Assembly (NCBI GenBank): GCA_964429815.1
Contig: CAYSCM010000001.1
Span: 320,001 to 384,000 of the forward strand
Source of the DNA: an uncultured Candidatus Saccharibacteria bacterium
GTDB taxonomy: Bacteria > Patescibacteriota > Minisyncoccia > Phycocordibacterales > CAYSCM01
DNA length: 64,000 nucleotides
Direction of reading: 5' to 3'
Below the pieces are notes generated by a model. The model was given only the letters and a program-made list of their open reading frames with translations, did not search any database and was not told where the DNA came from. The stretch's first letter is position 1; each line of letters begins with the position of its first letter. The translations under genes and the position numbers were made by a program. Shown here piece after piece: positions 8,215-27,453 of this stretch.

Positions 8215-8233
8215 GCAGTCTTACGCTATCATC

Positions 8234-8674
8234 GTGCCAAGAACTCTACAAGGAGCGCGCTATACTGTGGTAATGCGCTCAATTCAGATTATTTTGCTCG
8301 GGCTCATCTTCATTGGGATTGGTCTCATTGCGACGAAAAATCTCTGGCTCCCTCCGCTTGCAGATGCTGTGGTAGAGCGTGAGGGAGCGAAAATATGGAT
8401 CGATCAGTATTTCTCAAAAGATCCTTCGCATGTGTACTACGCATCCTTCCAGGGCGGAAAGGAGGGCGTGATAACGGTCACGACCAAGGCTCTCGAAGGA
8501 GCGGACCCGGATACGTTTAGAAGAGTAAGCGATATGACTGTCAGCACGACAACCGCCAGCTATCGTGAGTGGGCGCTCTATAGCGACAAAAACTCGACGT
8601 ACACCTACCTCATTTTCAAAACCGCGGGCGGCGTTCAAACGCTCGTGACCGCGACAAGCTCAAGCGCGCGGTAG
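8234..8674 (+). CDS. hypothetical membrane-anchored secreted protein
   Basis: 146 aa; N-terminal TM helix then soluble domain. Confidence 0.5.
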   Translation: MPRTLQGARYTVVMRSIQIILLGLIFIGIGLIATKNLWLPPLADAVVEREGAKIWIDQYFSKDPSHVYYASFQGGKEGVITVTTKALEGADPDTFRRVSDMTVSTTTASYREWALYSDKNSTYTYLIFKTAGGVQTLVTATSSSAR

Positions 8675-8675
8675 C

Positions 8676-9842
8676 ATGAAGCGCATCTTTAGTTTCCCAC
8701 GCAATATTTTCTTTCTCGGACTGACGAGCCTCTTCAACGATTTTTCCTCCGAGATGATCTACGCTGTATTTCCGGCTTTTTTCACCTCTGTCCTCCATGC
8801 TGGCGCACAGTCGCTCGGGCTTGTCGATGGTATCGCGGAAGCTGCTTCAAATTTTTTTAAGATTTATTCCGGCAATCTCTCCGACCGCCTCGGGAAGCGC
8901 CGGCCGCTGGTCATTGCGGGCTACACACTTTCCGTTTTCACACGTCCGCTCTATGTACTGTTTGCTTCCGTGGGCGGGGCGCTTAGTCTGCGCGTTCTCG
9001 ATCGTGTTGGAAAAGGCTTTAGGGACGCGCCAAGGGACGCTATTATCTCACTCTCGACACCGAAAGAAGAATTGGGCCGATCATTTGGCTTCCATAGGTC
9101 GATGGATACCCTCGGTTCCATTTTAGGACCCCTAGCCGCATATTTCCTTCTCCTCTATTTCCCGGGACAATTCGGTTCGCTTTTTTTGGCTTCGTTTGGA
9201 GTAGGCCTCATTGCGCTGTTTTCGCTCCTTTTTATCTCCGATGCAGCGATCTCGACCGGGCCGCTCAAGCGCGGATTTATCGGCTCACTCGACCGATACT
9301 CAAAAAAATTCAAACTGTTTCTCCTCGCCGTATTCATCCTCTCAATGGGGGCCCTTCCGGTTGCGGTCTTGCTCCTCAAGACAGAGTCGCTCGGACTCAA
9401 CATTGCCACTATACCCCTCTTCTACGTCGTCTACAGCATTTCTTACACCATTTTTTCTTTTATCGCCGGCAGTGTGAGTGACAAGATGGGCTCTCGCATT
9501 GTTATATCTCTCGGCTATCTAACTCTCATCGCCAGTTACTTCTTTATAGATGCCGCGCGGAGCGCCTGGAGCCTCGCGCTCGGTTTTTTTGTGTTAGGAC
9601 TTTTTCCGGCCCTTACCGATGGAGTTCAACGCTCTCTTGCGTCACAACTCTCGGGAACGCAGGAGCGCGGAGGGGCGCTCGGTCTTCTCAATGCGGCAGT
9701 GGGCCTCGGTGCGCTCATTGCGGGAGTTGGCGGTGGCTATGTGTGGCAAATGTTCGGCCCCAGCGCCGCATTTTTCGTTGGCGCTAAAGTGATTCTCGTA
9801 GGTCTCGTTGTTTTTGTTATCGCATCGCGATTACGCAGGTAA
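8676..9842 (+). CDS. MFS transporter
   Basis: 388 aa; about 12 TM segments, MFS-like loop GKRRPL. Confidence 0.8.
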   Translation: MKRIFSFPRNIFFLGLTSLFNDFSSEMIYAVFPAFFTSVLHAGAQSLGLVDGIAEAASNFFKIYSGNLSDRLGKRRPLVIAGYTLSVFTRPLYVLFASVGGALSLRVLDRVGKGFRDAPRDAIISLSTPKEELGRSFGFHRSMDTLGSILGPLAAYFLLLYFPGQFGSLFLASFGVGLIALFSLLFISDAAISTGPLKRGFIGSLDRYSKKFKLFLLAVFILSMGALPVAVLLLKTESLGLNIATIPLFYVVYSISYTIFSFIAGSVSDKMGSRIVISLGYLTLIASYFFIDAARSAWSLALGFFVLGLFPALTDGVQRSLASQLSGTQERGGALGLLNAAVGLGALIAGVGGGYVWQMFGPSAAFFVGAKVILVGLVVFVIASRLRR

Positions 9843-9889
9843 TGTTTTTGCAAAACGGGCGAAATTGGCTAGTATGTTCATTGTTTTGT

Positions 9890-9962
9890 GCCACCTTAGC
9901 TCAATTGGTAGAGCAACGGTATCGTAAACCGTAGGTTCCCGGTTCAAGCCCGGGAGGTGGCT
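9890..9962 (+). tRNA. tRNA-Thr (CGU)
   Basis: GCCACCU...ACGGU-AUCGUAA-ACCGU...CCCGG-UUCAAGC-CCGGG-AGGUGGC-U. Confidence 0.9.
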
Positions 9963-9991
9963 CCCTGAAATGTTCAGGTCGCATACGCGAT

Positions 9992-10064
9992 GCCGAAGTA
10001 GCTCAGTTGGCAGAGCATTCCCATGGTAAGGGAAAGGTCGCCGGTTCGATTCCGGCCTTCGGCT
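9992..10064 (+). tRNA. tRNA-Thr (GGU)
   Basis: GCCGAAG...UUCCC-AUGGUAA-GGGAA...GCCGG-UUCGAUU-CCGGC-CUUCGGC-U. Confidence 0.9.
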
Positions 10065-10068
10065 CAAC

Positions 10069-10950
10069 ATGAAGGACGAAAAAGACGTAAAGAGACGGAT
10101 CGTTTTACTCGAAGCCGCCATGGCCGCGCCGGATTTTTGGGCCGATAAAGAAAAAGCACAAGCTTCCATAAAAGAACTTCGGGAGCTCAAAGCGGCACTG
10201 GAGGGGAGAGGAAAGTACGATGCTGGCGAGGCTATCGTTTCCATTTTCTCGGGAGCGGGGGGAGATGACGCGGAGGATTTCTCCGCGATGCTCTTTGGCA
10301 TGTATCGCAAATTCTCCGAGGGAAAGGGGTGGGGACTCACCCTTCTAGGGGAAAATCAAAACAACCACGGAGGCTTTCGCAACGTGACTTTTGAAATAAG
10401 GGGCAAAAACGTATACGGCACGCTTAAAAACGAATCGGGCGTGCACCGGCTGGTGCGCGTGTCCCCGTTCAACGCCCAAGGTAAGCGTCAGACGTCCTTC
10501 TCTCTCGTCGAAGTCGTCCCGAAGCTTCCAAAGACCGACGACATCGATATCCCCGCCGACGACATCGATATCCAATTCCAAAAGGCGGGAGGCCCCGGCG
10601 GGCAAAACGTCAATAAGCGCGAGACCGCCGTGCGAGCCGTCCACAAACCTACCGGCATTTCGGTCCACGTTACGAGCGAGCGCAGCCAAGCGCAGAATAA
10701 GGAAAAGGCTCTTGAGGTCATCAAAGGAAAGCTCTTCAAAAAGCAAGAAGAAGACAGAAAACGTGAGGCTGCGGGCCTATCAATCTCGAAGACGACGTCC
10801 ATCGAGTGGGGCAACCAGATACGTTCCTATGTCCTCCACCCCTACAAGCTCGTCAAAGACCACCGCACGAGCGTCGAGGCGCACGACCCAGACTCCGTGC
10901 TCGCAGGAAATCTAGAAAAATTTATTGAAGCAGAGAAAAATTTAGAGTAA
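10069..10950 (+). CDS. prfB: peptide chain release factor 2 (short form, no programmed frameshift)
   Basis: 293 aa; SPF tripeptide (RF2-type), GGQ motif ([10 protein letters not shown]), [10 protein letters not shown]; starts 5 nt after tRNA-Thr. Confidence 0.85.
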
Positions 10951-10962
10951 ACTGTCTAAGTT

Positions 10963-11643
10963 GTGATCTATTTCGATAAGGTCAGTAAGGTCTACGCCGA
11001 TAACTCCGTGGCGCTCGACGATGTGACACTCTCGATAGCTCCGGGAGAGTTTGTCTCCGTCGTCGGCCACTCTGGTGCAGGAAAGACGACGCTCCTCAAG
11101 ATGCTTCTTGCGGAAGATAAGCCGTCTTCCGGAAACGTATTTTATGAATCAGTCGATGTGCACCGTCTCAATAGGACCCAAATAAACGAGTACCGACGTC
11201 GTATTGGCGCAGTTTTCCAGGATTTTCGTCTCCTGCCGCACAAAACGGCCTACGAAAATATCGCCTTCGCGATGGAAGCCGCCGGGCGCAGCGACGAGGA
11301 AATAGAATCCGACGTTCCGCACGTTCTCGAACTCGTAGATCTCGCCGATAAAATGTGGAATTTCCCAAAAGAGATGAGCGGCGGAGAGCAGCAGCGCGTC
11401 GCCATCGCGCGCGCCATCGTCAATCAGCCGGATATCGTCATTGCGGACGAGCCGACGGGGAACCTCGACCCCATCAATACCTTCGAGGTGGTTCAAATTC
11501 TCAAGAAGGTAAATGACTTAGGCACTACGGTGATCCTCACAACGCACAACAAAGGGGTCATAGACTCTCTGGGAAGACGTGTCATCACCCTCGATCGCGG
11601 TAGGATCGTGCGCGATGATAAGAGCGGCACGTACGTCCTCTAA
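10963..11643 (+). CDS. ftsE: cell division ABC transporter ATP-binding protein FtsE
   Basis: 226 aa; GTG start; Walker A GHSGAGKTT, signature LSGGEQQR, Walker B IVIADEPTG. Confidence 0.9.
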   Translation: MIYFDKVSKVYADNSVALDDVTLSIAPGEFVSVVGHSGAGKTTLLKMLLAEDKPSSGNVFYESVDVHRLNRTQINEYRRRIGAVFQDFRLLPHKTAYENIAFAMEAAGRSDEEIESDVPHVLELVDLADKMWNFPKEMSGGEQQRVAIARAIVNQPDIVIADEPTGNLDPINTFEVVQILKKVNDLGTTVILTTHNKGVIDSLGRRVITLDRGRIVRDDKSGTYVL

Positions 11644-11666
11644 AAACTGTTGTATACTGGGTCGGT

Positions 11667-12590
11667 ATGTGGACGGCGACAAAGCGCATCATACGGGGCG
11701 GGTTCATAGGATTCCTTCGCAACGGGTTCGTCTCTCTCGCCTCTATCCTCGTCATGACCGTGACCCTCTTTGTAATAGGGTCGCTTTTGTTTTTGGGAGC
11801 TATTTTCAACGCGTCGCTCCAAGAGCTTAAGGACAAAGTCGACGTGAACGTCTATTTCGTAACGACAGCTCCGGAAGACTCCATCCTCGCGCTCAAAAAA
11901 GACCTAGAGGCGCTTCCGGAGGTAAAAGGGGTGACCTACACGAGCCGGGAACAGGCCCTTGCCACGTTTCAAGAGCGCCACAAGGACGACCAGCTCACCA
12001 TCCAGGCGCTCCAGGAACTCGACAACAACCCACTCGGCGCGTCGCTCTCCATCAAGGCAAAAGAGACCTCACAGTACGAAGGTATCGCGAAGTTTCTAGA
12101 AAGCGGCTCGGCGCTCGGAAAGGACGGCACACCGATCATCGACAAGGTGAACTACTTCCAAAACAAATCGGCGATAGACAAACTCTCCTCGATCATCGAT
12201 TCCGCCAACAAAGTAGGGCTCGCCGTCACGCTTATCCTCATCGTCGCCTCCATCATCATTACCTTCAATACTATCCGGCTTGCTATCTATACGAGTCGCG
12301 AGGAAATCTCGGTGATGCGGCTCGTCGGTGCTTCTACCATGTATGTGCGCGGGCCATTTGTTTTCGCGGGCGTTCTCTACGGGCTCATTGCGGCGCTCGT
12401 GACGTTGCTTCTCTTCTATCCACTCGCGCTTTCCTTGGGGCCAGCTACGGAGCGTTTTTTCGGCAGCATCAACATCTTTTCCTACTACGCCTCGAATTTT
12501 GCCCACCTGTTCCTTGTCATAACGCTCTCCGGCGTTATTCTCGGCGGAGTGTCAAGCTATCTTGCGGTCCGAAAATACCTTAAGGTGTAG
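11667..12590 (+). CDS. ftsX: cell division permease-like protein FtsX
   Basis: 307 aa; FtsX topology (TM1, large periplasmic loop, 3 C-terminal TMs); follows ftsE. Confidence 0.85.
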   Translation: MWTATKRIIRGGFIGFLRNGFVSLASILVMTVTLFVIGSLLFLGAIFNASLQELKDKVDVNVYFVTTAPEDSILALKKDLEALPEVKGVTYTSREQALATFQERHKDDQLTIQALQELDNNPLGASLSIKAKETSQYEGIAKFLESGSALGKDGTPIIDKVNYFQNKSAIDKLSSIIDSANKVGLAVTLILIVASIIITFNTIRLAIYTSREEISVMRLVGASTMYVRGPFVFAGVLYGLIAALVTLLLFYPLALSLGPATERFFGSINIFSYYASNFAHLFLVITLSGVILGGVSSYLAVRKYLKV

Positions 12591-12619
12591 GCATACGGGA
12601 GCAATGGCAGAACGTCGGC

Positions 12620-14278
12620 ATGACCAAGAAGGGACATAAATACATTTTCGTGATAGGGGGCGTCATGTCGGGAGTCGGCAAAGGCATCGCCGCCTCCTCG
12701 ATCGGCAAAATCCTTCAAGCGAAGGGTTTTATTGTAAATCCCGTCAAAATCGACCCCTACCTCAATGTCGATGCGGGCACCATGAACCCGACCGAGCACG
12801 GGGAAGTCTTCGTGCTTCGGAGCGGACTTGAGACCGATCAGGACATGGGCAACTACGAGCGTTTCATGGAGCTCGATCTCACGAGCGAGGATTACATGAC
12901 CTCGGGCATGGTCTATCAATCGGTTATCAAGCGTGAGCGCAGTCTCGGCTATCGGGGGAAGTGTGTTGAGGCGATTCCCCATGTACGCGATGAAATTATC
13001 GGACGTATTGAGGAGGCTGCGAAAAAAAATGGCTCCCAGATCTCCATTATCGAAATTGGGGGCACCATCGGCGATTTCCAAAACGCTCTCTATATAGAGG
13101 CGGCACGCATCATGAAGATGGAGCACCCTGATGACGTGCTCTTCATCATGGTCTCTTATTTGCCGGTACCCGGGAAGCTCGGCGAGATGAAGACAAAACC
13201 AACGCAAAATGCCGTACGTCAGCTCAATTCCTACGGCATCCAGCCGGACATAATCCTCGCACGAAGTGCGGTGCCCCTCGACCGTAAACGCAAAGAGAAA
13301 CTTGCTATCTGGTGTAACGTGCGTGCCGATCATGTCATCTCCGCGCCTGATATCGAAAGTATTTATGAAGTACCGCTCAATTTCGAAAAGGACGGACTCG
13401 GAGACATACTCCTCGAACAGCTCAAAATAAAGGCCGCAGGGCGCAAGTCCGATCTCCGCGCATGGAAAAATTTTGTCACCAAGATCCTCAACGGAAAAAC
13501 CGAGCTTCAGGTGGCGATCGTGGGCAAGTATTTCGATACGGGGGATTTCGTCCTCTCCGATGCCTACATATCCGTCATCGAGGCTATTAAATTCTCTGCC
13601 GCCAAGCTCGGTGTGCGGGCGAAAGTGTCCTGGCTCAACTCAAAAGATTTCCAAAATGGTGCGGCAAAACTCGCATCTCTCAAAAAATTCCACGGCATTA
13701 TCGTCCCAGGTGGTTTTGGGGAAACTGGCATCGAAGGAAAAATAGCGGTTATTCGCTATGCACGCGAGAACAAAATTCCCTACTTTGGGCTCTGCTACGG
13801 CATGCAGCTTGCCGTCGTCGAATTTGCCCGCAATGTATTGAAGCTCAAGGGCGCTCATACGCGGGAGATCGACAGCAATCCTACGCATCCGGTCATTGAC
13901 ATCATGCAAGATCAAAAAAAGAAACTCGCTCAAGATGATTACGGCGGCTCCATGCGGCTTGGCGTCTATCCGGCCCACCTCAAGCTGAGAACGCTAGCAC
14001 GGGAGGCCTATAGGAGGGACATGATCGAAGAGCGTCATCGGCATCGCTACGAGGTGAACCCCGACTACGTGGCGAAATTCGACGGCTCCGACATGCTTTT
14101 CTCCGGCGTCTCGCCGGATGGGGTTCTCATGGAAATCATGGAGCTCAAAAAAACTGTCCATCCGTTTTTCCTGGGCACTCAGTTCCACCCAGAGCTTCAG
14201 GCGCGCCCGCTCCACCCCCACCCGCTCTTTACGGCTTTTCTCGCCGCCGCGCTTTCTCGCAAAAAGCGCTCGCGATAA
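12620..14278 (+). CDS. pyrG: CTP synthase
   Basis: 552 aa; N-terminal KYIFVIGGVMSGVGKGI, C-terminal glutamine amidotransferase GLCYGMQ. Confidence 0.95.
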   Translation: MTKKGHKYIFVIGGVMSGVGKGIAASSIGKILQAKGFIVNPVKIDPYLNVDAGTMNPTEHGEVFVLRSGLETDQDMGNYERFMELDLTSEDYMTSGMVYQSVIKRERSLGYRGKCVEAIPHVRDEIIGRIEEAAKKNGSQISIIEIGGTIGDFQNALYIEAARIMKMEHPDDVLFIMVSYLPVPGKLGEMKTKPTQNAVRQLNSYGIQPDIILARSAVPLDRKRKEKLAIWCNVRADHVISAPDIESIYEVPLNFEKDGLGDILLEQLKIKAAGRKSDLRAWKNFVTKILNGKTELQVAIVGKYFDTGDFVLSDAYISVIEAIKFSAAKLGVRAKVSWLNSKDFQNGAAKLASLKKFHGIIVPGGFGETGIEGKIAVIRYARENKIPYFGLCYGMQLAVVEFARNVLKLKGAHTREIDSNPTHPVIDIMQDQKKKLAQDDYGGSMRLGVYPAHLKLRTLAREAYRRDMIEERHRHRYEVNPDYVAKFDGSDMLFSGVSPDGVLMEIMELKKTVHPFFLGTQFHPELQARPLHPHPLFTAFLAAALSRKKRSR

Positions 14279-16333: not shown

Positions 16334-16447
16334 GCAGCAGTCAGCGCAGTATCGTGCGAGACCGGAGAGCCTCAGAACTCAAAGGTCCGCCGATTCGCTG
16401 AATGTACTATTCCGTTATTGCATATCCGGTGAGTCCGGTATTCAGAA

Positions 16448-16493: not shown

Positions 16494-17825
16494 CTAGAGA
16501 TATCTTTTTGCTTTTAATGTGATTCTGGTTTTAAGAGTTCCTAGCAGTTCACGCTTCTCAAGAACATCGCCTTCTGTCAGGACATGTCTCACATAATGCC
16601 GTGCATCGAAGTGTTCCTCGACACGCTGCGGTGATTGCTGCCCCAAGAACATTCTTTGGAATTTCTTAGCTCGGGCGCGTTCCTCCTCAAATTTCTTGCG
16701 AATTATCGGCTCATTGAGTTCTAATTTATCTATCTGCTCTATGAGTTGTCGGACAAGCTCCTCTTCGCGAATGTAACCGGCGGCTCTACAGGCGCGATCC
16801 TTTGAGCGATTGCATCCGTAGTACAGGTACGTGGCAGTCGTGCCCGTGCTTTTGATGAGTTTGTGCTTCTCCTCGGCGCAGACACCCGAGCCGCACGCTC
16901 CGCAGGTGATGAGTCGTGTGAAGGCGAACTCCTTGGACTCACCGCGCACAATTCTGTCGCGCTTGAGTTGTGCCAGCACCTTTTCATACAGTTCACGGGT
17001 GATTATCGGTTCGTGTTTGCCCGTGTACCATTTGCCGCTCCCGATTGGGTACTCAAACTGTCCGAAGTAGAACGGCGTCTGCAGGATTTTGTAAATGTTA
17101 CTCAAAGTCAGAGGCTTATTGCTCGTTGCGCTTCGGAAATTCATATCGAACTTGAGCCAGTGATAGAGCTTTTGCCCAGACCATTTCTCGTATGCGACCT
17201 TCTCGAACATCTGCCGAACGACTGGTGCACGGTCGGGGTCGACCATGACGTACCCCTTCCGGTCGACACGTTTCTCGTTGAGGTAGCCGGTCGGCGCAGG
17301 CGCAGGCCATAAGCCCATCTCACAGCGCATGCGGAGGCCTCGCTTCACATTCACACTTTTGTTGTCGTTCTCAAGCTTTGCCTGACTGCACAAAATCATG
17401 AGAAGAAATTTCTCACTCGGTGAATTTGTGAACTTCTGGCCGTATGTTCGGATCTCGACGAGAAGTTTTTGGTCCATCAAGTCCACCAGACTCCCGAGGT
17501 CGCCTGCGTTGCGGCTCAGGCGGTCTGGGTTCCAGGTGAGTACACCGTTGAACCGTCCGGAGCGGATGTCTTTGAGAATCTCATTGAACACAGGCCGCTG
17601 GCCGGAGTCCTTCGCAGAGTGTGCTTCACGCCGGATGTCCACGATCTCGATGCCATCACGCTCCGCGATCTCGAGCATTTCCTTCACCTGAGAGTCGATG
17701 GACAGTGCCTGTTTTTCGCTCGTGTCCTCAGTCGACTTTCGAGCGTAGAGTACATACTTAACTGGTACTGCTAATTGCGGCACGAAAGTGCCTGGAGCTC
17801 TAGCCCCTCGGGTTATGGTTTCCAT
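16494..17825 (-). CDS. large serine recombinase (resolvase/integrase family)
   Basis: 443 aa; N-terminal resolvase domain YARKSTEDTSEKQALSIDSQ (catalytic Ser), recombinase domain, zinc-ribbon CGACGSGVC...YYGC. Confidence 0.9.
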   Translation of the reverse strand: METITRGARAPGTFVPQLAVPVKYVLYARKSTEDTSEKQALSIDSQVKEMLEIAERDGIEIVDIRREAHSAKDSGQRPVFNEILKDIRSGRFNGVLTWNPDRLSRNAGDLGSLVDLMDQKLLVEIRTYGQKFTNSPSEKFLLMILCSQAKLENDNKSVNVKRGLRMRCEMGLWPAPAPTGYLNEKRVDRKGYVMVDPDRAPVVRQMFEKVAYEKWSGQKLYHWLKFDMNFRSATSNKPLTLSNIYKILQTPFYFGQFEYPIGSGKWYTGKHEPIITRELYEKVLAQLKRDRIVRGESKEFAFTRLITCGACGSGVCAEEKHKLIKSTGTTATYLYYGCNRSKDRACRAAGYIREEELVRQLIEQIDKLELNEPIIRKKFEEERARAKKFQRMFLGQQSPQRVEEHFDARHYVRHVLTEGDVLEKRELLGTLKTRITLKAKRYL

Positions 17826-17917
17826 ATACCCAAAGGAATGACGCCTCCCGCCAGGAAGTCCAACGTCTAAGTTGGTAACCTTCAGAGCCGATTTGACTTT
17901 GATTCATTTGATGCATT

Positions 17918-18229
17918 ATGATGGTAGGTATGGAAGATTCAGTTTCAGGGTACAAAGCAGTTAAACGGCTCGCGGTAGAGCGGCCTGATTGGCTCCCTAT
18001 CATTCGAGAGTGCTTGAATTTGCGGAAAGAGATTCACAACACTGACTTTGCTGGCGCATGGGTATATCAGCGTCTTCAAGAGAAGGGCGGACCGAAATTT
18101 TCAAATCTGCGTCTTCTTGTTAGCTTTGGCATCTTGAAGAAAGAGGCGACCTCACGCGGTGGTCGACGCGCGTACTACTCCTTCGTCGATCCTGAGGGTG
18201 TCGAGAAAGCATTAAGCGAGCTTTCATAA
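17918..18229 (+). CDS. hypothetical small protein (possible DNA-binding/controller) upstream of methyltransferase
   Basis: 103 aa; ends 5 nt before MTase start. Confidence 0.4.
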   Translation: MMVGMEDSVSGYKAVKRLAVERPDWLPIIRECLNLRKEIHNTDFAGAWVYQRLQEKGGPKFSNLRLLVSFGILKKEATSRGGRRAYYSFVDPEGVEKALSELS

Positions 18230-18233
18230 TTTT

Positions 18234-19331
18234 ATGAAAGTCAAAGTTGCGAACACAAGCCTACACGGCGCAAAGAAAGCGAAAAAAGACGAGTTCTACA
18301 CTCAACTCGTTGATATTGAAAAAGAGCTGAAGCACTACAAAAACCAGTTTCGCGGCAAAGTCGTGTACTGCAACTGTGACGACCCGTTCGAAAGCAACTT
18401 TTTCAAATACTTTGCCGCAAATTTCAACGCGCTTGAGTTGAAAAAACTTATCACGACGAGCTTCGTCAAATCGCCTATCGCTGGTGGGCAGTTGCCGCTT
18501 TTTGAAATGCAGGGGCTAAAACCCGACGGCAAAGAACCGTTTAAAATTGCAATACGGGAGGTCCCAGACGCGGACGGCGACGGTGCAATCAATCTTGATG
18601 ATGTGAAGTATCTACTGCAGCACGACAAGAACACAGCAACCCCGCTGAAAGGAAACGGCGATTTCCGCAGCGATGAATGCATGGAATTTCTTAAAGAGGC
18701 AGACATCGTCGTGACAAACCCGCCATTCTCACTTTTTCGTGAATACATTTCGCAACTGGTAGAACACAACAAAAAATTCCTGATCATCGGCAACATCAAC
18801 GCCGTCACCTACAAAGAAGTGTTCCCTTTGATTAAGGCAAACAAACTATGGCTCGGTGCAAGTATCCATAGTGGGGACCGCGAGTTCCGAGTGCCGGAGG
18901 ACTACCCGCTAAACGCAGCTGGCTACCGAGTTGACAGCGACGGAAACAAATATATTCGCGTCAAAGGTGTGCGCTGGTTTACCAATCTCGATTACGACGA
19001 ACGCCACGACAGCGTTGTGCTTTACAAAAAGTATTCGCCAAAAGAATATCCTAAATACGATAACTACGACGCCATAAATGTGAACAAAACTGTTGATATT
19101 CCCATGGACTATAAAGGCGCTATCGGTGTACCAATTACTTTCCTTGATAAATACAGCCCCGACCAATTTACAATTCTAGGCGCACTAATCTCTGGTCCAC
19201 TTGGACAAGAGCTAGGAGCGACCAAAACAAAACAGATCAGGCCAAACGGAAAAACGACAATGGAATACGGGCCTATTATCAAGACGAAGGGTTATTACGG
19301 AAGGATTGTCATTAAAAATAAAACGCTATGA
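18234..19331 (+). CDS. M.EcoRI-family N6-adenine DNA methyltransferase
   Basis: 365 aa; N-terminus KKAKKDEFYTQ...KVVYCNCDDP...FFKYFA and IVVTNPPFS (motif IV); collinear with M.EcoRI as recalled. Confidence 0.9.
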   Translation: MKVKVANTSLHGAKKAKKDEFYTQLVDIEKELKHYKNQFRGKVVYCNCDDPFESNFFKYFAANFNALELKKLITTSFVKSPIAGGQLPLFEMQGLKPDGKEPFKIAIREVPDADGDGAINLDDVKYLLQHDKNTATPLKGNGDFRSDECMEFLKEADIVVTNPPFSLFREYISQLVEHNKKFLIIGNINAVTYKEVFPLIKANKLWLGASIHSGDREFRVPEDYPLNAAGYRVDSDGNKYIRVKGVRWFTNLDYDERHDSVVLYKKYSPKEYPKYDNYDAINVNKTVDIPMDYKGAIGVPITFLDKYSPDQFTILGALISGPLGQELGATKTKQIRPNGKTTMEYGPIIKTKGYYGRIVIKNKTL

Positions 19332-20419
19332 AAATCGAGCTACAAAAAATAAAAATACGCGATGTCGTGAATGGCTACAAAGACAGCGCCGAGGAAGGCG
19401 TCGTAGCGTATGGTGGTAAGCTCGATATTCGTCCAAAGTACCAGCGTGAGTTCATCTACAAAGACAAACAGCGCGATGCGGTGCTTGATACGGTCAAGAA
19501 AGGATTTCCACTCAACGTTATGTATTGGATGGTGCGGGAGGACGGCGGTTATGAAGTGCTCGACGGCCAACAGCGCACCATCAGCATCGGCCAGTATGTC
19601 AATGGTGATTTCTCGCTCGGCGACCGCTATTTCCACAATCTCATCAAGGAGGAGCAAGAGCAGATTTTGAGCTACGAGCTGATGATTTATTTCTGTGAGG
19701 GCACAGATAAGGAACGGCTCGACTGGTTTAGGACAATCAACATCGCGGGCGAAAAGTTAACAGACCAAGAGCTTCGCAATGCTGTATACACTGGCCCTTG
19801 GCTTTCAGACGCAAAACTCAAATTCAGCAAGACGGGCTGTGCTGCCTATCACTTGGCAAACGACGGTGGGGCGCTCGTCAGTGGCTCGCCGATCCGACAG
19901 GAGTATTTGGAAACTGCACTCTCATGGATAAACAAGGGTGAGGTTGCGGCCTACATGGCGAAGCATCAGCATGACAAAGACGCTGAGAAACTATGGACTT
20001 ACTTCCAAGACGTAATTGGGTGGGCGCGAAAGACGTTCCCCAACTACCGCAAGGAAATGGCGCATGTGAACTGGGGTGAACTATACAATGAGTTCAAAGA
20101 CAAGAAACTGAATGCCGCCAAACTCGAAACCGAAGTCAAGAAACTAATGCAGGACGAGGATGTAACGAAAAAGTCCGGCATCTATCCGTATGTTTTGACC
20201 GGCAACGAGCGCGAACTTTCTATCCGCGCGTTCACCGACAAAATGAAGCGCGAGGCATACGAGCGACAAGACGGCGTCTGTCCGTTTTGCAAAAAGAAGT
20301 TTGACGTTTCAGAAATGGAAGCCGACCACATCACGCCATGGCATGAGGGCGGAAAAACAACAGCTGAAAACTGCCAGATGCTCTGCAAGCAAGATAACCG
20401 GACAAAGTCCGGGAAATGA
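19328..20419 (+). CDS. DUF262 (ParB-like nuclease-fold) protein with C-terminal HNH endonuclease domain
   Basis: 363 aa; IRPKYQREF and DGQQRT DUF262 motifs; C-terminal CPFCKKKF...ADHITPWHEGG...NCQMLCKQDN HNH; start overlaps MTase stop (ATGA). Confidence 0.85.
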   Translation: MKIELQKIKIRDVVNGYKDSAEEGVVAYGGKLDIRPKYQREFIYKDKQRDAVLDTVKKGFPLNVMYWMVREDGGYEVLDGQQRTISIGQYVNGDFSLGDRYFHNLIKEEQEQILSYELMIYFCEGTDKERLDWFRTINIAGEKLTDQELRNAVYTGPWLSDAKLKFSKTGCAAYHLANDGGALVSGSPIRQEYLETALSWINKGEVAAYMAKHQHDKDAEKLWTYFQDVIGWARKTFPNYRKEMAHVNWGELYNEFKDKKLNAAKLETEVKKLMQDEDVTKKSGIYPYVLTGNERELSIRAFTDKMKREAYERQDGVCPFCKKKFDVSEMEADHITPWHEGGKTTAENCQMLCKQDNRTKSGK

Positions 20420-20476
20420 ATCGAGAAGTCATCGAAAAAAACATGGCGACGAAATGACACAGACCATAAATATCCC

Positions 20477-21184
20477 ATGATAGAGCTACCATCTTGGCTT
20501 AAGATTGGAAAAATAATCGAAAAACTCGATTTCTCCAATTGGTTTAGTCGCCAGTTAAGAGATGATCAGCGTAAGTATGTGGGTGGGGACTACATCGAGA
20601 AAGTGGAAATACATAACCACGCTCCTTCAGGCACCATCGAGGAAGATCCGCTGGCCAGAGGACTGTATACGCTTGGTTTGGAAAGACGGCAGGTAGACAC
20701 GTACGGGGGCTTCTTCAATAGTTTTTATCTAGAAGTAGAGAAGAGACGGGAGCGTCAAATAACGAGAAGTGCTCATACCATGCTATTGGGTGCGGTTTTT
20801 GCCGTCGGGACAAAGTATCAAAACAATCCTGAGTGGAAAGAACACTGCTCATCGTCATTACGTGAAATATTCCACGAGTGGAGTGGCCCAGATGAATTCA
20901 GGCGGGACCTTGTTTCTGTCTACAACCACAGCAACGCAAAAGGAGGGCTTGCAACAGACGAGGAGGATAGTCTAACGTCATTTTGGCTTCTGTATCGATA
21001 TTTCTCTAGTATAGATCATCATCAAGCATCCGGAATACTGCACGCTCTACGCGCATTTCTTAGAGATAGCTCGCTTAAAATCGAGGACTGCGTGAATGAC
21101 GATATTTTTATTGAGAGAGCAAAAGATTTCTTCTCACATTTATCTCGTATTTCTGAAATCGCAAAGAAACGTACTGAACCATGA
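20477..21184 (+). CDS. hypothetical protein (no recognisable domain), upstream partner of 998-aa protein
   Basis: 235 aa; stop overlaps next start (ATGA). Confidence 0.6.
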   Translation: MIELPSWLKIGKIIEKLDFSNWFSRQLRDDQRKYVGGDYIEKVEIHNHAPSGTIEEDPLARGLYTLGLERRQVDTYGGFFNSFYLEVEKRRERQITRSAHTMLLGAVFAVGTKYQNNPEWKEHCSSSLREIFHEWSGPDEFRRDLVSVYNHSNAKGGLATDEEDSLTSFWLLYRYFSSIDHHQASGILHALRAFLRDSSLKIEDCVNDDIFIERAKDFFSHLSRISEIAKKRTEP

Positions 21185-24177
21185 ACCAGATCGAATTACA
21201 CAACAGGATAGATGAGTACATTGCTCACGGCCCAGGGAAGGCTGCATGGACGGCTGTAAAAAAAATAACTGAGATTCACCTCGACGTGAAGAAGTATTTT
21301 TATACTAGAGCCGATGAAAAGTGGTTTGACTTGGTACGCGGAGATATTCTGAATGTGGCGAAGACAAAAGCTAGTGATCCCACGAAATACTCATATCAAA
21401 CGCCTGAGCTTGATTATTTGGCTCGGGTGGCTGAGATAATTCCACAGAAGGTCACTAAACTCATTTTAGACACTTCCATATCTAAAGAGAACTTCAATCC
21501 AGAAGTGGTTGATCGTTTTCTTTGGATTTCGAGCAAATTGCCCGCCGACCAACTTAAACGAGTAGTCGTGAAAATCCGCGATGATCAATGGATTCAACTT
21601 ATGGCGCCTTTCAATAGGTGGGTTTTTGAATATCAAAAGATGTTCGAGACGCTTGCAGTTGCCAAGGACCAGGACAGCATACTTATCCTTGCGGAAGCGG
21701 TTTTGCGGACACGTTCAAAGGATGAGCTGGCAAAGATTAACAATGGGATATCGACGGACAATCCCTTCTTCCTTTCAGACCTCAGCGAAACAGACATTTT
21801 CAGTCTTCTTGCCTCTTCTGATGATAAACATCTAGATGCTGCTCTTCGGGTCGCAACTAATGCACTCGCGGGCGTTATCAGGACTGGCGATCGAGAAGAT
21901 AACGTTTTTGAAATCGGTGAGATTTTTCACCTCTTTGATGTTGACTTTTTTTCTCTTGAATTGGGCAAGGGCCGACATTATTCACATAGAGATGAGGTCA
22001 GAGAACTGGCAGCCGTTGTCAAAACACTCGTGAATCGCTCTATTGGTAAGAGCTGCAACGATTCAAAAGAGACTCGCCGGATCTACGAACACATAGAACG
22101 TTTGCCGGATAGTCGATCCATGTGGCGACTGCGGCTCTATGTCTGGAGTCTGTGTCCGAAGGTGTTCAAGGACGAATTACAGACTGCATTTTTCAAGGGC
22201 CTAGAGTCGCGAGAAATGTTATGGCCAATTACAGGCGGTGCGGAATACGATCACGCTCTTAAAAGGTGTTTTGATGTTGTTCTGTCCGAGGAGGACCGGA
22301 AGGCATATATTCAACGTGCCTTTGAGATACTTGACGTGAATGAAGAGCACCCATACGGCTACGGTATATTTGCCAGTATCCAAAGGCATCTGTCAGAACC
22401 GCAGAAGCAGCGGGTGGAAGCCCTCTACAAGATGCCGCTTGATCCAAATTATACGCCTGAGCCTAGCGTAGGTCATTCGTATGCCGGCACAATAGTTTCG
22501 CAGTCACCCAAGGAGGCAGATGATGTCTGGGGAAAGCCGGTTCCGGAGATTGTACAAGCTCTAGAAACCCGCTTGACGCCGGAGCAACTACAAAAGATAG
22601 ACGGTAGGAAAGATTTTCTAAAACCGGTAAACGCAGAGGGGGTGGCGGATAAAATGCGGTCACAAATGAAAGAACGCACGAGTGAATATACCGCCAACGC
22701 GACTTTGTTTTTCGATAGAAAACTAATGGATCCACACTACACCTACTCCTTCTTCCGTGGCGTGGATGAGATTATTCGCTTGCATCGAGAAAAAGTGTCA
22801 GAAATAAACTGGCAGCAGATTATTGCGCTTGGTGTCGCAATTACGAAAGAAGGACAACGAGAGTCTTTTGATTTCACTAAGCGAGAAAGGGAGCACTTCG
22901 ATGCCTGGCTCGCAGGATGGATTGGTGTACACGACGGCCTCGGAGATGTTTTGCAGGATTATCTCCGAAATGATAACGGAATCACTGAGGAGTCCTTCAA
23001 TAAGAACCGGGAGGATCTTTTCAAGATTATTTGCTACCTACTCACCATACCGGATCCGGTTCCTAAGGACGAGCAACCTGAAACGGCTGGCATGACTACC
23101 ACGCCGCCCGGCGGAGAGAAATTAGTGAGCGATCCTTTCGCGATAGCCATTAACTCGGTTCGCGGCCGAGCATATCAAGCGTTCGTAATGTTTATGGAGT
23201 GGGATGGGCGTAAGTATGCGAAGGACGCAAAAGTGAAGCTATCTCCAGATGTATTGCAAGAGTACAAGGATCTTTTAGCGCGTGAAAATACCGGCGCAAT
23301 TTTCTTCATGTACGGACACTATCTACCGTTTTTCTACTTCCGCGATGTTAAGGAAGTCCGAAAGCTCCTCCCGCAAATATTTACGAGCGACAGTAAAAAG
23401 GTTCATCTGTATCTCGCGGCGTGGGAGGGTTATCTGACTCGTAGTCTCTATCGAGAGATGTTTGTCCAGCTACAGGGTGAATACGAACGAGCAATCAAAA
23501 ATAATCCTGACTCTTATCCGAAAAGAAATTACCGTGCAGACCTTGACGAAGCATTAGCAACTCATATGGCATTGGCGTACATCCACTTCGAGGATTTCAC
23601 GCTTGATTCAAGTCTGTTCAAACTTTTTTGGAGCACTCCAAACCAAAAGAGGTATCAAGAGTTTGTATCATTCATCGGACGCTATGTGATCTCGAAAGAT
23701 CATGCAAAGGAGAATCTCGCTGAAAATCCTGAGATCAAACTTTCTAAGCTTATTGACTTCTGGGATTGGACGCTTGAATACGTTAATGACCCGGATGTAT
23801 TTGCCGAATATGGTTTCTGGATGGATACAACCGGTGGTTTATATGACGATGTAACGGCACTTGCCCGAAGGATTCAGAAAACACTCAAAAAATCTAAAGG
23901 TAAAGTCGACTGGGAGATTAAGCTAATGGATTCGCTCCCGACGTTGGCGGCAGCAGTCCCCAAGGACACACTGGAGATTTTACGACTTTATCTCAAACCA
24001 CTTGATGTGAGCCCACGCAGTCGACACTTCATGCATGTCGACGCCGACCTTGTAAATATTTTCAGGACGCTGCATAAGAATCCAGAGACTCAAGACGAGA
24101 CTTATAAGTTGATCGACGAACTCCTGCCGTTGGGGAATGGGGTGTATTGGAAGTTGAAGGAGGCCTTAACGGAGTAG
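21181..24177 (+). CDS. large hypothetical protein (998 aa), predicted alpha-helical, no NTPase or nuclease motifs recognised
   Basis: Uninterrupted 3 kb ORF in lower-GC island; Trp/Tyr-rich; no Walker A. Confidence 0.7.
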   Translation: MNQIELHNRIDEYIAHGPGKAAWTAVKKITEIHLDVKKYFYTRADEKWFDLVRGDILNVAKTKASDPTKYSYQTPELDYLARVAEIIPQKVTKLILDTSISKENFNPEVVDRFLWISSKLPADQLKRVVVKIRDDQWIQLMAPFNRWVFEYQKMFETLAVAKDQDSILILAEAVLRTRSKDELAKINNGISTDNPFFLSDLSETDIFSLLASSDDKHLDAALRVATNALAGVIRTGDREDNVFEIGEIFHLFDVDFFSLELGKGRHYSHRDEVRELAAVVKTLVNRSIGKSCNDSKETRRIYEHIERLPDSRSMWRLRLYVWSLCPKVFKDELQTAFFKGLESREMLWPITGGAEYDHALKRCFDVVLSEEDRKAYIQRAFEILDVNEEHPYGYGIFASIQRHLSEPQKQRVEALYKMPLDPNYTPEPSVGHSYAGTIVSQSPKEADDVWGKPVPEIVQALETRLTPEQLQKIDGRKDFLKPVNAEGVADKMRSQMKERTSEYTANATLFFDRKLMDPHYTYSFFRGVDEIIRLHREKVSEINWQQIIALGVAITKEGQRESFDFTKREREHFDAWLAGWIGVHDGLGDVLQDYLRNDNGITEESFNKNREDLFKIICYLLTIPDPVPKDEQPETAGMTTTPPGGEKLVSDPFAIAINSVRGRAYQAFVMFMEWDGRKYAKDAKVKLSPDVLQEYKDLLARENTGAIFFMYGHYLPFFYFRDVKEVRKLLPQIFTSDSKKVHLYLAAWEGYLTRSLYREMFVQLQGEYERAIKNNPDSYPKRNYRADLDEALATHMALAYIHFEDFTLDSSLFKLFWSTPNQKRYQEFVSFIGRYVISKDHAKENLAENPEIKLSKLIDFWDWTLEYVNDPDVFAEYGFWMDTTGGLYDDVTALARRIQKTLKKSKGKVDWEIKLMDSLPTLAAAVPKDTLEILRLYLKPLDVSPRSRHFMHVDADLVNIFRTLHKNPETQDETYKLIDELLPLGNGVYWKLKEALTE

Positions 24178-24178
24178 C

Positions 24179-24397
24179 TTAGAGGAAATACTCAACATTC
24201 TTTCCGTATAGCTTCGCCAGCTTGTTGAGCCATATTGCTTCTACCCGCAATTCTCCCAGCTCAACTTTCGACACCCACGACTGAGAGCATTTGAGTTTGT
24301 CAGCGACCTCGGCTTGTGTCAGCCCCGCATCAAGGCGGGCTTTCCTCAGTCGCTTCACGAATACAGCCCGCTCGTCAGTATGAATGGACTTTCTCAT
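24179..24397 (-). CDS. XRE-family HTH transcriptional regulator
   Basis: 72 aa; LTQAEVADKLKCSQSWVSKVELG HTH. Confidence 0.8.
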   Translation of the reverse strand: MRKSIHTDERAVFVKRLRKARLDAGLTQAEVADKLKCSQSWVSKVELGELRVEAIWLNKLAKLYGKNVEYFL

Positions 24398-24424
24398 ACC
24401 TATAAGCGTCTATTCCGTTATGGG

Positions 24425-24443
24425 ATATTCCAAAATGGAATAT
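24425..24443. promoter_or_regulatory. perfect palindromic operator atattcca-aaa-tggaatat in divergent XRE/nuclease promoter region
   Basis: 8-bp perfect inverted repeat with 3-bp spacer, 28 nt upstream of XRE start. Confidence 0.6.
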
Positions 24444-24527
24444 TCAATGTTAGGCTACGAATGTCCGACAAAGGCAAGAGTTGGTAACCTCCTTCGCAAG
24501 CCTCCGAATCTAAGTTAGGAACACCAC

Positions 24528-24995
24528 ATGGACCCTATATCCAATAACAAGCGTAATACCATCCTTACCGGCGTCTCCGGCGAGTACTACGTCGCCGCTG
24601 AACTTTCGCGTCGTGGATACCTCGCCTCTATCACACTTCGCAACACCAAAGGCGTAGACATCCTCTGCTCAAACGCGGAGGCGAGTAAATCTGTAGGTAT
24701 CCAGGTAAAGGCAAAGTCGGGTAATGATCGTGTATGGATTCTCAACGAGAAAGGAGAACATTACTACGCGAACAATCTCTTTTACGTTTTTATCAACATC
24801 GACGACGGTCTCAACAAGCATCCTGAGTACACGGTCGTGCCCAGTAAGGTAGTTGCCGAGTACGCTCGCGAGTCGCACGCGAGGTGGTTAAGCGAACCGA
24901 AGAAGGACGGCAGCGCTCGCAAAGACACGACTATGCGGAAGTTTCAGGATCCGGAGGAGAAGTATCTTGGTCGGTGGGATCTGTTGGGTCTTTGA
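24528..24995 (+). CDS. PD-(D/E)xK-fold nuclease-like protein (YraN/Hjc-like motif)
   Basis: 155 aa; GVSGEYYVAAELSRRGY...RNTKGVDILC resembles GxxGE...GEIDLIA core. Confidence 0.5.
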   Translation: MDPISNNKRNTILTGVSGEYYVAAELSRRGYLASITLRNTKGVDILCSNAEASKSVGIQVKAKSGNDRVWILNEKGEHYYANNLFYVFINIDDGLNKHPEYTVVPSKVVAEYARESHARWLSEPKKDGSARKDTTMRKFQDPEEKYLGRWDLLGL

Positions 24996-25560
24996 ATTCG
25001 TTCCCGTATTTCTCATTCAACCTCTCGAGTGTCTTTTTGCTAATAACGATCTGCCCGTTTTCGTCTGAAAATGCTTCAATTAGGTCTTGTTTTCTCTGTC
25101 TCTCAACTTCGTCAAGGAATTTCTTCAACGAAGCCTCTCTGACAAGTAACTTCCCGTCGGGGCCGGTGAACATCCTCCGCAATTTCTTCAGGTCGATTTC
25201 CATCTGGTAGTCGGGACCGAATTCCTCATAGTCGTCGAACTTATCCATGAGCGGTATCTTCTCCTCCTCGCCGCGAAGCTTCGGGCTGTAGAACTTGCTG
25301 TTGTGCGTGAGGAAGAATTTGGAGTCCGCCTTGTCCCCGTTGTTGATCCCTTTGATGATGTTCGACTCCGCCTTCTCGCTCACGGCCTCCCGGCTCACTC
25401 TCCGCACGGTTTCCGCGGCCCGCTTGAATTCCGGGTCGTCGTGCATCCACCGGTATATGGTCATGCGCGTAACGTCGACCTTTCGCGCGGCCGTGCCGAT
25501 AAACGGCGTGGTCTCCAACGCCTTGAGGAATTCCTCGCGTTTATCGGCACCGTGCGTCAT
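24931..25560 (-). CDS. phage terminase small subunit-like HTH protein
   Basis: 209 aa; N-terminal HTH GTAARKVDVTRMTIYRWMHDDPEF; acidic C-terminus; 3' end overlaps the convergent gene by 65 nt. Confidence 0.5.
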   Translation of the reverse strand: MTHGADKREEFLKALETTPFIGTAARKVDVTRMTIYRWMHDDPEFKRAAETVRRVSREAVSEKAESNIIKGINNGDKADSKFFLTHNSKFYSPKLRGEEEKIPLMDKFDDYEEFGPDYQMEIDLKKLRRMFTGPDGKLLVREASLKKFLDEVERQRKQDLIEAFSDENGQIVISKKTLERLNEKYGNEFKDPTDPTDQDTSPPDPETSA

Positions 25561-25563
25561 AAA

Positions 25564-26925
25564 CTAGCCGATCTTCACGCGCTTCTTGCCTGTGAACTTC
25601 TCCCAGCGATTGAGAATTACTTCGGCGTACACAGGTGATTTCTCAATCAGGAAACAACGCCGACCAAGCGTGATGGATGCGATGAGCGTCGACCCGCTCC
25701 CGCCGAACGGCTCAAGCACGAGCTGCCCGCGCTTCGTGAGCGTCTTGATGTACGGCACGAGAATCTCGATCGGTTTTACGCCGAAGATGATCGCTTGGCC
25801 TGAAGATTTTTCATCAGCGGCATTGAACTCGATGAAATCGGTCGGGCAGTATTTCTTGTCTTTGCCGTAGCTCTCCCAGTGTGCGCCCTTGCCGTCAATG
25901 GCAAAGAGTGCCGTTTGGTACTCGTTCTCGTACAACTCCTGTTCGTTCTCGAGATTCAGACCGCTGTACTCCTCGCTCGTGCCGACCATCGCGATGTCGT
26001 GCTTGGAGAAGAACTTATTGCGCCCCGCGTATCCTTGGTTGCGGTTCGGCAAGTGCCACACGATCATATTGCGCACCTTCCAGTGCTTTTCCATCTCACT
26101 CCAGATTTCGCGAATGTTCTTCCAGTTTTCGTAGCAGATGATTGAGAAGTCCTTATTCGCAACTTTCGCAACATTGCTCATCCATTTCTCGGTGAAATCG
26201 GCTGGCAATGATTCTGTTTCAAGATAGCGACGGTTCTTCTTCGAGCCGAACCCAACCGTTGGCTCGCCATTGCGGGTCTTGCCTTTGAGGTAGTCCAGCC
26301 GATACGGAGGGTCCGTCATAACCATGTCCGCCTTTTCGGACATGAGCTTGAGCACATCTTCTTCGATAGTGCTGTCCCCACAGAGAAGCCGCGAACCGTC
26401 GAGCTCGTACACGTCGCCCTTCCGCACACCGATTGTTTTGATGTCGAGCTTTTTGAGCTCTTTCTCAAGTGAGAATTCCGCCTCCGTAGAATCTTCCTCA
26501 AAGATGTTGTCGAGTTCTTCGGAATCGAAGCCGACAGCCTCAAGGAATGCTTCGTCGAACTCGGCGAGCAACAGGTCGTAATCCCACTCACCGACAGCCT
26601 TGTTGAGGCGGAGGCAGAGGTCCTTCTCTTTTTCGATATCGGCAATGTGGACGAAGACGCACGGCACCTCCTTGTACCCGAGATCTTTCATGACTTCGAA
26701 GCGGAGGTTGCCGCCAATAATGACGTTCTCGCGCTCCTTGGCGCGGTTTACTACAAGGGGATCAACACTTCCATGCCGCTCAAGACTCTCGCGCACGGGC
26801 TTCTTCGTGTCATCGTTGACCAAACGAGGATTATATTCGGCGTGCTTAAGGCTGGTAATGGGAACATATTCGACCCACAGTTTGTGAGCCGTATCCGCAG
26901 AGACTGCGACAGTGTTTTTAGTCAT
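25564..26925 (-). CDS. ParB-like nuclease domain fused to DNA N6/N4 methyltransferase (phage-type)
   Basis: 453 aa; ParB N-terminal domain (VPCVFVH, GGNLRFE), then MTDPPY (motif IV) and C-terminal PFGGSGST (motif I): beta-class order. Confidence 0.85.
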   Translation of the reverse strand: MTKNTVAVSADTAHKLWVEYVPITSLKHAEYNPRLVNDDTKKPVRESLERHGSVDPLVVNRAKERENVIIGGNLRFEVMKDLGYKEVPCVFVHIADIEKEKDLCLRLNKAVGEWDYDLLLAEFDEAFLEAVGFDSEELDNIFEEDSTEAEFSLEKELKKLDIKTIGVRKGDVYELDGSRLLCGDSTIEEDVLKLMSEKADMVMTDPPYRLDYLKGKTRNGEPTVGFGSKKNRRYLETESLPADFTEKWMSNVAKVANKDFSIICYENWKNIREIWSEMEKHWKVRNMIVWHLPNRNQGYAGRNKFFSKHDIAMVGTSEEYSGLNLENEQELYENEYQTALFAIDGKGAHWESYGKDKKYCPTDFIEFNAADEKSSGQAIIFGVKPIEILVPYIKTLTKRGQLVLEPFGGSGSTLIASITLGRRCFLIEKSPVYAEVILNRWEKFTGKKRVKIG

Positions 26926-27012
26926 ATGGTTACGACTATTAACGAATAATAGGAGACGCTATGCCTCCTGTATGTAGTAGTCGCCGGAAAATCGGAGTTT
27001 AATACCCGCCCC

Positions 27013-27453
27013 TCACAGCTCCAATCCTGCGGGATATACTCGATTGGTTATGTAGGTATCACGCCCCGCGCGGCGGCGGAGGTCCTTTATTCCGTTTTTG
27101 AGAATGCTAAGAACGTATGTACGCGGCGCTGCGCCATTTTTGTGCTTGAAATTGAGCTTCGCGTTGATAAGCCGCAACTTCAGTTCGCTTTCTATATCAT
27201 CGGGGTCAAGATCTGGAACCCACTCGTATTCAGCAATCTTTCTGATGTCCGCGCTATATTGCAAATAGAGTTTAAAATTCGGTGCCATGCAATGGATTCT
27301 ACAACCGGTGTTCGAGTAAAAGGTGCCAGGCGAGAACGCAAAAATCTCCAATGACCCTAAATGAAGCATTCGAGATTTTTGAAAACGGTGGATAACTGAT
27401 TTGACGGGTTTTCGCAAAACTCTTGAGTGTCGTAACATTCGTATCATTTTCAA
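27013..27453 (-). CDS. hypothetical protein
   Basis: 146 aa ORF in AT-richer DNA; no motif recognised. Confidence 0.3.
   Translation of the reverse strand: MKMIRMLRHSRVLRKPVKSVIHRFQKSRMLHLGSLEIFAFSPGTFYSNTGCRIHCMAPNFKLYLQYSADIRKIAEYEWVPDLDPDDIESELKLRLINAKLNFKHKNGAAPRTYVLSILKNGIKDLRRRAGRDTYITNRVYPAGLEL

Follow-up and report, generated by a model that had tools for sequence, protein, structure and literature searches.

The window analysed here, a stretch of 64,000 nucleotides from an uncultured Candidatus Saccharibacteria bacterium, contains an island of about 11 kb (window positions 16494-27453; positions 1967-12926 of our locus L001) in which a gene for a small XRE-family regulator (xre) and a gene for a protein of 155 amino acids (aa) with a predicted PD-(D/E)xK nuclease fold diverge from a short spacer. 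We propose, at a probability of about 0.6, that this locus is the regulatory core of an integrative element of roughly that size and that the nuclease is carried as accessory cargo. The XRE protein, its operators and the promoter facing the nuclease gene belong to the backbone of a family of small integrative phage-like elements, and this backbone has a one-gene slot with exchangeable content, filled in the window by the nuclease; XRE and nuclease do not make up a conserved module.

The XRE regulator and its probable operators

The xre gene (24179..24397, minus strand) encodes a 72-aa regulator consisting of a single XRE/Cro-CI-type helix-turn-helix (HTH) domain. Pfam searches recovered HTH_31 (1.9e-12, 47.7 bits, cut-off 27) and HTH_3 (1.1e-08, 35.4 bits, cut-off 23), which places the protein among the XRE/Cro-CI HTH regulators and bears out the assignment made in the first-pass annotation of this DNA. 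Its homologues form a tight family of 72-aa proteins with 75-92% identity, encoded on contigs labelled Paceibacterota, Kaiserbacteria or Patescibacteria; relatives of solved structure include 3eus, ICEBs1 ImmR, the 434 repressor and C.BclI (8.2e-04), and the Control_protein models of PADLOC are matched weakly (2.2e-04). The gene lies tail-to-tail with that of a 998-aa protein, which ends at 24177 and leaves 1 nt between the two stop codons, and xre appears to be monocistronic.

The divergent spacer between xre and the 155-aa open reading frame (ORF) measures 130 bp (24398-24527) and contains a perfect 8+3+8 palindrome, ATATTCCA-AAA-TGGAATAT, at 24425..24443, both exactly where the first-pass annotation had located them. 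This site, which we term O1, presents the half-sites TATTCC and GGAATA 5 bp apart, with its centre 37 bp upstream of the xre ATG. An imperfect copy that had previously gone unnoticed, O2 (24411..24427, TATTCCGTTATGGGATA, that is TATTCC-GTTAT-GGGATA), overlaps O1 by 2 bp, so that the two centres are 15 bp apart; the centre of O2 is 22 bp upstream of the ATG and the site itself lies 13 bp from it. A perfect 8-bp inverted repeat with a loop of 0-10 nt occurs in about 2% of dinucleotide shuffles of the spacer, and across the entire window 82 such repeats were counted, where its dinucleotide shuffles gave about 14 (range 6-21). Taken alone, the O1 palindrome rises above chance only weakly, and the comparative data are decisive.

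These data come from an alignment of 22 metagenomic loci whose XRE proteins are 64-89% identical to that of the window. The pattern TATTCCA-N3-TGGAATA is invariant in all 22 of them, 13-46 nt upstream of the start codon, and the operator block keeps a fixed distance from the ATG while its flanks diverge. On the xre strand the GGAATA half-site of O2 is likewise invariant and its TATCCC is conserved; we count this third invariant half-site, besides the two of O1, towards the operator. In L105 and L106 both O1 arms differ at their outermost position, and do so symmetrically, giving ATTATTCCA...TGGAATAAT. All 25 loci of the XRE family have the exact operator pattern, and none of 122 other fetched loci does; the latter set comprises every locus of the 155-aa family together with more distant XRE-like loci. 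Because the palindrome is conserved with the XRE protein across the 22 loci, it is very probably the cognate operator of the regulator; conservation points to a cognate palindromic site near the regulator's own presumed promoter, and agrees with the earlier suggestion that an HTH protein would bind here. The palindrome follows one of its two flanking genes, being kept in XRE-homologous loci and absent from nuclease-homologous ones.

Further operator copies were sought across the window, and only two matches with 2 mismatches were found (16408 and 19032), within chance expectation. The first (TATTCCGTTATTGCATA, 16408-16424) shares its first 11 nt with O2 and lies just outside the serine recombinase gene on its 3' side; with 2 mismatches to the operator consensus it falls within chance (2.1 expected, 4 found). 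Three other perfect 8-bp inverted repeats in the window have the 3-nt spacing of O1 (at 27872, 46880 and 58777).

Gene neighborhoods of the XRE and nuclease families

The first-pass annotation had considered that the XRE and the divergent nuclease might constitute a dedicated toxin or abortive-infection module. No such module is apparent: all 80 genome loci of the nuclease family that were inspected lack a homologue of the window XRE nearby, and conversely the nuclease is found in none of the 24 XRE-family metagenome loci. A scan of 77 small divergent ORFs detected a divergent HTH_3 ORF within 500 nt in only 1 of 73 nuclease loci, and BLAST clustering of neighbours in the 80 loci recovered no conserved partner of the nuclease. 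The two closest nuclease homologues (76-79% identity) are embedded in the same backbone as the window protein, namely a serine recombinase, cargo, the nuclease, a convergent HTH_17/small-terminase-like (TerS-like) gene and a ParB_N-N6_N4 methyltransferase, without XRE or operator.

The genes that diverge from XRE homologues in other loci encode Imm_superinfect, UPF0102/Mrr_cat-like, zinc-ribbon membrane, SHOCT or DUF4352 proteins, or proteins lacking any Pfam domain. The convergent cargo on the other side of the XRE varies as well, and comprises HsdR with YgjP, HEPN_Swt1, DUF5677, a Mutator transposase or a homologue of the 998-aa protein. The alternative suggestion of an immunity-region remnant came close: in a small integrative element of phage-like type, XRE, operators and divergent promoter make up the regulatory core that is conserved. 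In L092 the slot opposite the XRE (3384-3923, minus strand) contains another small PD-(D/E)xK-like protein, with matches to UPF0102 (1.6e-03) and Mrr_cat (6.3e-03) that are both below cut-off, and unrelated nuclease-fold genes may recur in the divergent slot.

Putative promoters and the 5' leader

Beginning 4 bp beyond O1, the alignment reveals a set of conserved columns that had not been noticed before: on the xre strand A15, T19, A20 and C22 never vary and A23 reaches at least 90% conservation, which on the plus strand reads TGnTAnnnT. In the window this corresponds to a putative extended -10 element, TG-T-TAGGCT (24448..24456, plus strand), of the divergent transcript. Because O1 lies directly upstream of this conserved element, bound XRE would occlude the divergent promoter; O1 would cover approximately -20 to -38, the position of a repressor. 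That the XRE represses this promoter has, in our estimate, slightly better than an even chance of being correct. For xre itself we tentatively place a promoter at 24405..24433 (minus strand), with a -35-like TTGGAA (24433-24428) inside O1 that is invariant in the 22-locus alignment, a weak -10-like GACGCT (24410-24405) of the form nAnnnT, and a 17-nt spacer between them that contains O2. By this geometry xre transcription would start at or beside the ATG and be leaderless, and no Shine-Dalgarno sequence occurs at a usable distance before the xre ATG.

The 5' leader of the divergent transcript (24457..24527, plus strand) displays conserved blocks in our alignment A4: GTTGGTAAC, CTTCGCAAG, CCGAA and CTAAG-TAGGAACAC are kept upstream of unrelated genes in other elements. 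The motif AGGAA (24517-24521) is likely to be the ribosome-binding site of the divergent gene. The leader may be an untranslated region, may mark where the slot recombines, or may have some other role. A structured RNA was considered here and dropped, as RNAalifold returned only a 4-bp invariant stem with zero covariation and Rfam gave no match. The blocks GTTGGTAAC, CTTCGC, CCGAA and CTAAGCTAGGAACAC precede unrelated coding sequences in L088, L089, L093, L095, L098, L099, L102 and L104; a second upstream sequence is common to L087, L090, L091, L094, L096, L097 and L101, as judged by eye without alignment.

The nuclease-fold protein

The gene in the slot of the window (24528..24995, plus strand) encodes a stand-alone 155-aa protein with no match in Pfam, NCBIfam or PADLOC; a PHROGs search returned only families of unknown function, and PDB sequence and profile searches only chance matches. 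The AlphaFold model, built from a 40-sequence alignment (pLDDT 91.7, pTM 0.86), comprises a helix (11-28), strands 32-35, 45-48, 55-64 and 69-73, a helix (75-78), strands 84-91 and 100-105, and a C-terminal extension. The resulting order, alpha-beta-beta-beta-beta-alpha-beta, includes the alpha-beta-beta-beta-alpha-beta core of the PD-(D/E)xK superfamily. Foldseek ranked the DREN domain of SPARDA first (9qcc, 9jt2 and 9vx6; E 9e-06 to 1e-04), followed by I-Ssp6803I and Hjc, and the viral structures matched by the model are also PD-(D/E)xK proteins. The protein thus almost certainly has a PD-(D/E)xK fold, as judged from this model, and the earlier guess of an Hjc/YraN-like enzyme of this superfamily holds at the level of fold and motif.

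The GxxGE...(V/G)(D/E)IL core on which that guess was founded is real: it corresponds to GxxGE...VDIL with G15, G18, E19 and D44, and runs on into Q59-V60-K61. By secondary-structure register, rather than by superposed coordinates, D44 is placed just before the second strand (45-48) and Q59-V60-K61 within the third (55-64), where PD-(D/E)xK enzymes have their catalytic aspartate and (D/E/Q)xK motif. Among representatives 35-60% identical, D44 and K61 occur in all 72 and Q59 in 70, with E in the other 2, so that the family displays both the predicted catalytic aspartate and the (D/E/Q)xK motif. Helix alpha1 offers two acidic residues in the window protein that may bind metal, E19 and E25, the latter kept in 64 of the 72; E77 is kept in 67. 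The combination of xD with QVK or QIK is the active site verified by mutagenesis in NhoI and Eco15I (PMC11347163), and the 155-aa protein is predicted to be an active, metal-dependent endonuclease. A further family-specific signature, H117, W120, R137, F139 and W150, lies in the C-terminal extension. The DREN tetramer has been described as I-Ssp6803I-like (bioRxiv 10.1101/2025.04.08.647717), and both I-Ssp6803I and DREN are tetramers; by analogy with these the 155-aa protein is probably oligomeric.

The family is large. A word-indexed database yielded 1731 homologue clusters, the best 120 listed being 59-81% identical, and an exhaustive profile search yielded 3744 clusters at 50% identity, most of the best 150 listed consisting of a single domain of about 150 aa. 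Relatives with 50-66% identity were detected by a genome scan in Saccharibacteria, Nanoarchaeota, Methanosarcinales, Proteobacteria, Planctomycetota and many other lineages, and distant homologues belong to the accessory gene content of plasmids and of Burkholderia temperate phages. Such conservation across phyla may point to a substrate that is present everywhere, whether a DNA structure or a modification. The 137 proteins flanking the family match 120 different Pfam families, with few genes of restriction-modification (R-M) type among them. Two homologues (P0039 and P0074) are named 'aspartate ammonia-lyase' in public records, a name incompatible with the predicted fold that looks like a propagated misannotation. 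Four others (P0245, P0312, P0359 and P0379) are fusions to DUF4268, DUF6508 or GAF domains, some of which could be read-throughs of gene calls.

Organization of the element

The first gene of the island as mapped here is a serine recombinase (16494-17825, minus strand), homologues of which (56-62% identity) occur on the expected side of those XRE loci with long enough flanks. It is followed by a 103-aa ORF, an EcoRI-like methylase (18234-19331), a GmrSD_N-HNH enzyme (19328-20419; PADLOC REase_II, 2.7e-140), a 235-aa ORF without database matches, and the 998-aa protein (21181..24177, plus strand) on the other side of xre, the last gene of a cargo block to which the methylase and the GmrSD_N-HNH enzyme also belong. 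Residues 420-932 of the 998-aa protein match the C-terminal part of the Dsr1 model of PADLOC (7.5e-19); no SIR2 or other Pfam domain was found in it, and in L090 the corresponding position beside the XRE is taken by a homologue with 35% identity. The 235-aa gene precedes the 998-aa gene with overlapping stop and start codons (20477-24177), and the two may be a two-gene defence candidate.

Beyond the nuclease the backbone resumes with a 209-aa TerS-like gene (24931..25560, minus strand; phrog_4044 terminase small subunit, 1.8e-08; HTH_17, 1.8e-04, below the Pfam cut-off), which is kept beside nuclease homologues in L084 and L085. It converges on the nuclease gene, and the two overlap by 65 nt at their 3' ends (24931-24995); nuclease homologues overlap the corresponding gene by 4 nt in L084 and 35 nt in L085/L086. 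In L102 a terminase gene with an RNaseH-like domain (Terminase_6C, TerL-like) follows the TerS-like gene; the window copy is without it, and no structural phage genes were seen in the island. Next comes the ParB_N-N6_N4 DNA methyltransferase (25564..26925, minus strand), which has homologues of 58-71% identity in L092, L093, L102 and L105, lying there to the same side of the XRE as in the window, weaker matches (26-42%) in L095 and L099, and homologues adjoining the nuclease family in L084, L085/L086, L014, L024 and L045. A Sigma70_r2-like gene (27013-27453) is the last one mapped in the island.

We propose that the element is ordered as serine recombinase, cargo block, xre, operators, one-gene slot, TerS-like gene, ParB-methyltransferase and sigma-like gene, and that XRE dimers would bind two adjacent sites of the form 6-N5-6, the perfect O1 and the imperfect O2. 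As both overlap the presumed promoter region of xre, binding would bring about negative autoregulation, and XRE on O1 would at the same time occlude the divergent extended -10 promoter. When free, this promoter would express whichever accessory gene fills the slot, here a stand-alone PD-(D/E)xK endonuclease that is predicted to oligomerise and to cut DNA on behalf of the element, in exclusion of or defence against competing DNA. To such a defence or exclusion role we give somewhat less than an even chance.

Several observations weigh against this proposal. O1 could serve xre autoregulation alone, as 85 bp separate it from the start codon of the nuclease gene but only 13-46 bp from xre. A generic sigma-70 two-hexamer promoter and terminator scan returned nothing in 24100-25100, and both promoter assignments are drawn entirely from conserved motifs and geometry. 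On the side of the nuclease, the alpha1 acidic residue E19 is present in just 49 of the 72 family representatives (68%), and no defence model of PADLOC matches the protein. The 50-80% identity of the family across bacterial and archaeal phyla is atypical of restriction-type enzymes. Its neighbours in the 80 genomes are a mixture of housekeeping and R-M genes that gives no clear defence-island signal, and it is rare in viral contigs, with 2 loci in IMG/VR.

Alternative explanations

The nuclease might instead be a free-standing homing endonuclease, a selfish gene whose product cuts a specific site in alleles lacking it, the gene then being copied into them by repair. Its structural kinship with I-Ssp6803I and its solitary, patchy distribution across phyla would fit such a history. 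However, the gene stands free between protein genes, outside any intron or intein, with no Rfam match over 24100-25100; the approximately 3700 clusters of intact proteins of about 150 aa, at the identities given above, argue for sustained purifying selection rather than the cycle of decay that homing endonuclease genes are expected to show; the insertion contexts in the 80 loci are heterogeneous, with no single recurrent target gene; and in XRE elements the same slot is filled by unrelated genes. We consider this explanation rather unlikely.

A still smaller share of probability goes to an Hjc-like structure-specific resolvase serving recombination or packaging of the element, for which the fold would be suitable. 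However, the nuclease is missing from most of the related elements that share the backbone, and most family members are chromosomal without phage or replication neighbours. Moreover, the conserved C-terminal extension of about 50 residues has no counterpart in Hjc (113-130 residues against 155).

That the locus is a toxin-antitoxin or abortive-infection pair, with a nuclease toxin restrained by the XRE either transcriptionally or through direct binding, is very unlikely. The divergent arrangement could have suggested it, but the reading is unsupported because XRE and nuclease are not a conserved pair: neither family keeps the other (0 of 80 and 0 of 24 loci, and one divergent HTH_3 ORF in 73), and the closest nuclease homologues do without an XRE in the very same backbone. 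The XRE also lacks an extra domain able to neutralise a toxin, and the two genes diverge instead of forming the operon of a type II pair.

The operator, two sites centred 15 bp apart immediately before the gene of an XRE of about 70 aa, resembles the architecture of C-boxes. Together with the weak Control_protein and C.BclI matches of the XRE and the co-occurrence of nuclease and ParB-methyltransferase in the window, L084, L085/L086, L014, L024 and L045, it might suggest an R-M pair of these two enzymes under a C-protein-like controller, a possibility we regard as highly improbable. The methyltransferase is a backbone gene present when the slot contains other genes, only 3 of the 137 nuclease-family neighbours are N6_N4 methyltransferases, xre shares its transcript with no downstream gene (its neighbour on that side being convergent), and the cargo block already has a separate complete R-M pair.

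Implications

To our knowledge almost no regulator-operator pair has been described in bacteria of the candidate phyla radiation, and an XRE operator as clean as this one, backed by conservation and of precise geometry, is rare for them. The mobile-element scaffold, with two variable slots that collect restriction, HEPN, Dsr1-like and superinfection-immunity genes, offers a practical guide to new exclusion and defence genes in Patescibacteria. Assigning a fold and a predicted active site to a large, unannotated and unusually conserved nuclease family corrects the 'aspartate ammonia-lyase' records, and the locus leaves the general understanding of XRE repressors and PD-(D/E)xK enzymes unchanged. 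A more speculative extension, which we hold to be doubtful, is that XRE, double operator, extended -10 element and leader make up a portable expression cassette marking two cargo hotspots in an as yet undescribed family of small Patescibacteria elements with serine recombinase, TerS/TerL and ParB-methyltransferase genes, and that such elements trade genes for exclusion and defence between ultra-small bacteria. The 155-aa protein would then found a new family of single-gene nuclease defences, with about 3700 clusters in bacteria and archaea, outside every current defence catalogue.

Comparison with known systems

Among the structures closest to the 155-aa model is I-Ssp6803I (PDB 2ost; PDDEXK_5, PF11645), from which the window protein differs in not being intron-encoded and in possessing its own conserved C-terminal extension. 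Neither the window protein nor 39 close relatives match PDDEXK_5 at E <= 1, and three distant members score 23.4-25.9 bits against a gathering threshold of 26.1; the family is only marginally linked to PDDEXK_5 by sequence, and membership is not assigned. The top Foldseek matches come from the DREN of SPARDA, which is fused to APAZ and acts with an Argonaute partner, whereas the 155-aa protein is a lone domain with no pAgo or APAZ in the gene map and no PADLOC match. Hjc carries EVK where the 155-aa protein has QVK and lacks its 50 extra C-terminal residues; no match is detected between them at the sequence level, and the context of Hjc is housekeeping, in contrast to the mobile element seen here. 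The BisI-family modification-dependent enzymes NhoI and Eco15I have xD and QVK/QIK in common with the 155-aa protein, without detectable sequence homology.

For the regulator the nearest comparisons are 434 cI, ICEBs1 ImmR and the C proteins of R-M systems. The window differs from phage and integrative-conjugative-element repressors in having only a one-gene variable slot opposite xre in place of a Cro-like gene or lytic operon, and from the ICEBs1 type in that no ImmA-type protease partner is seen in its gene maps. The C proteins likewise have two upstream operator sites, but the co-transcribed restriction gene typical of them is absent, since in homologous loci as in the window the gene downstream is a convergent one. 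With all three kinds of regulator the window XRE shares a single XRE HTH domain, palindromic operators with half-sites one helical turn apart, and two adjacent sites that would overlap the divergent promoter regions upstream of the regulator's own gene.

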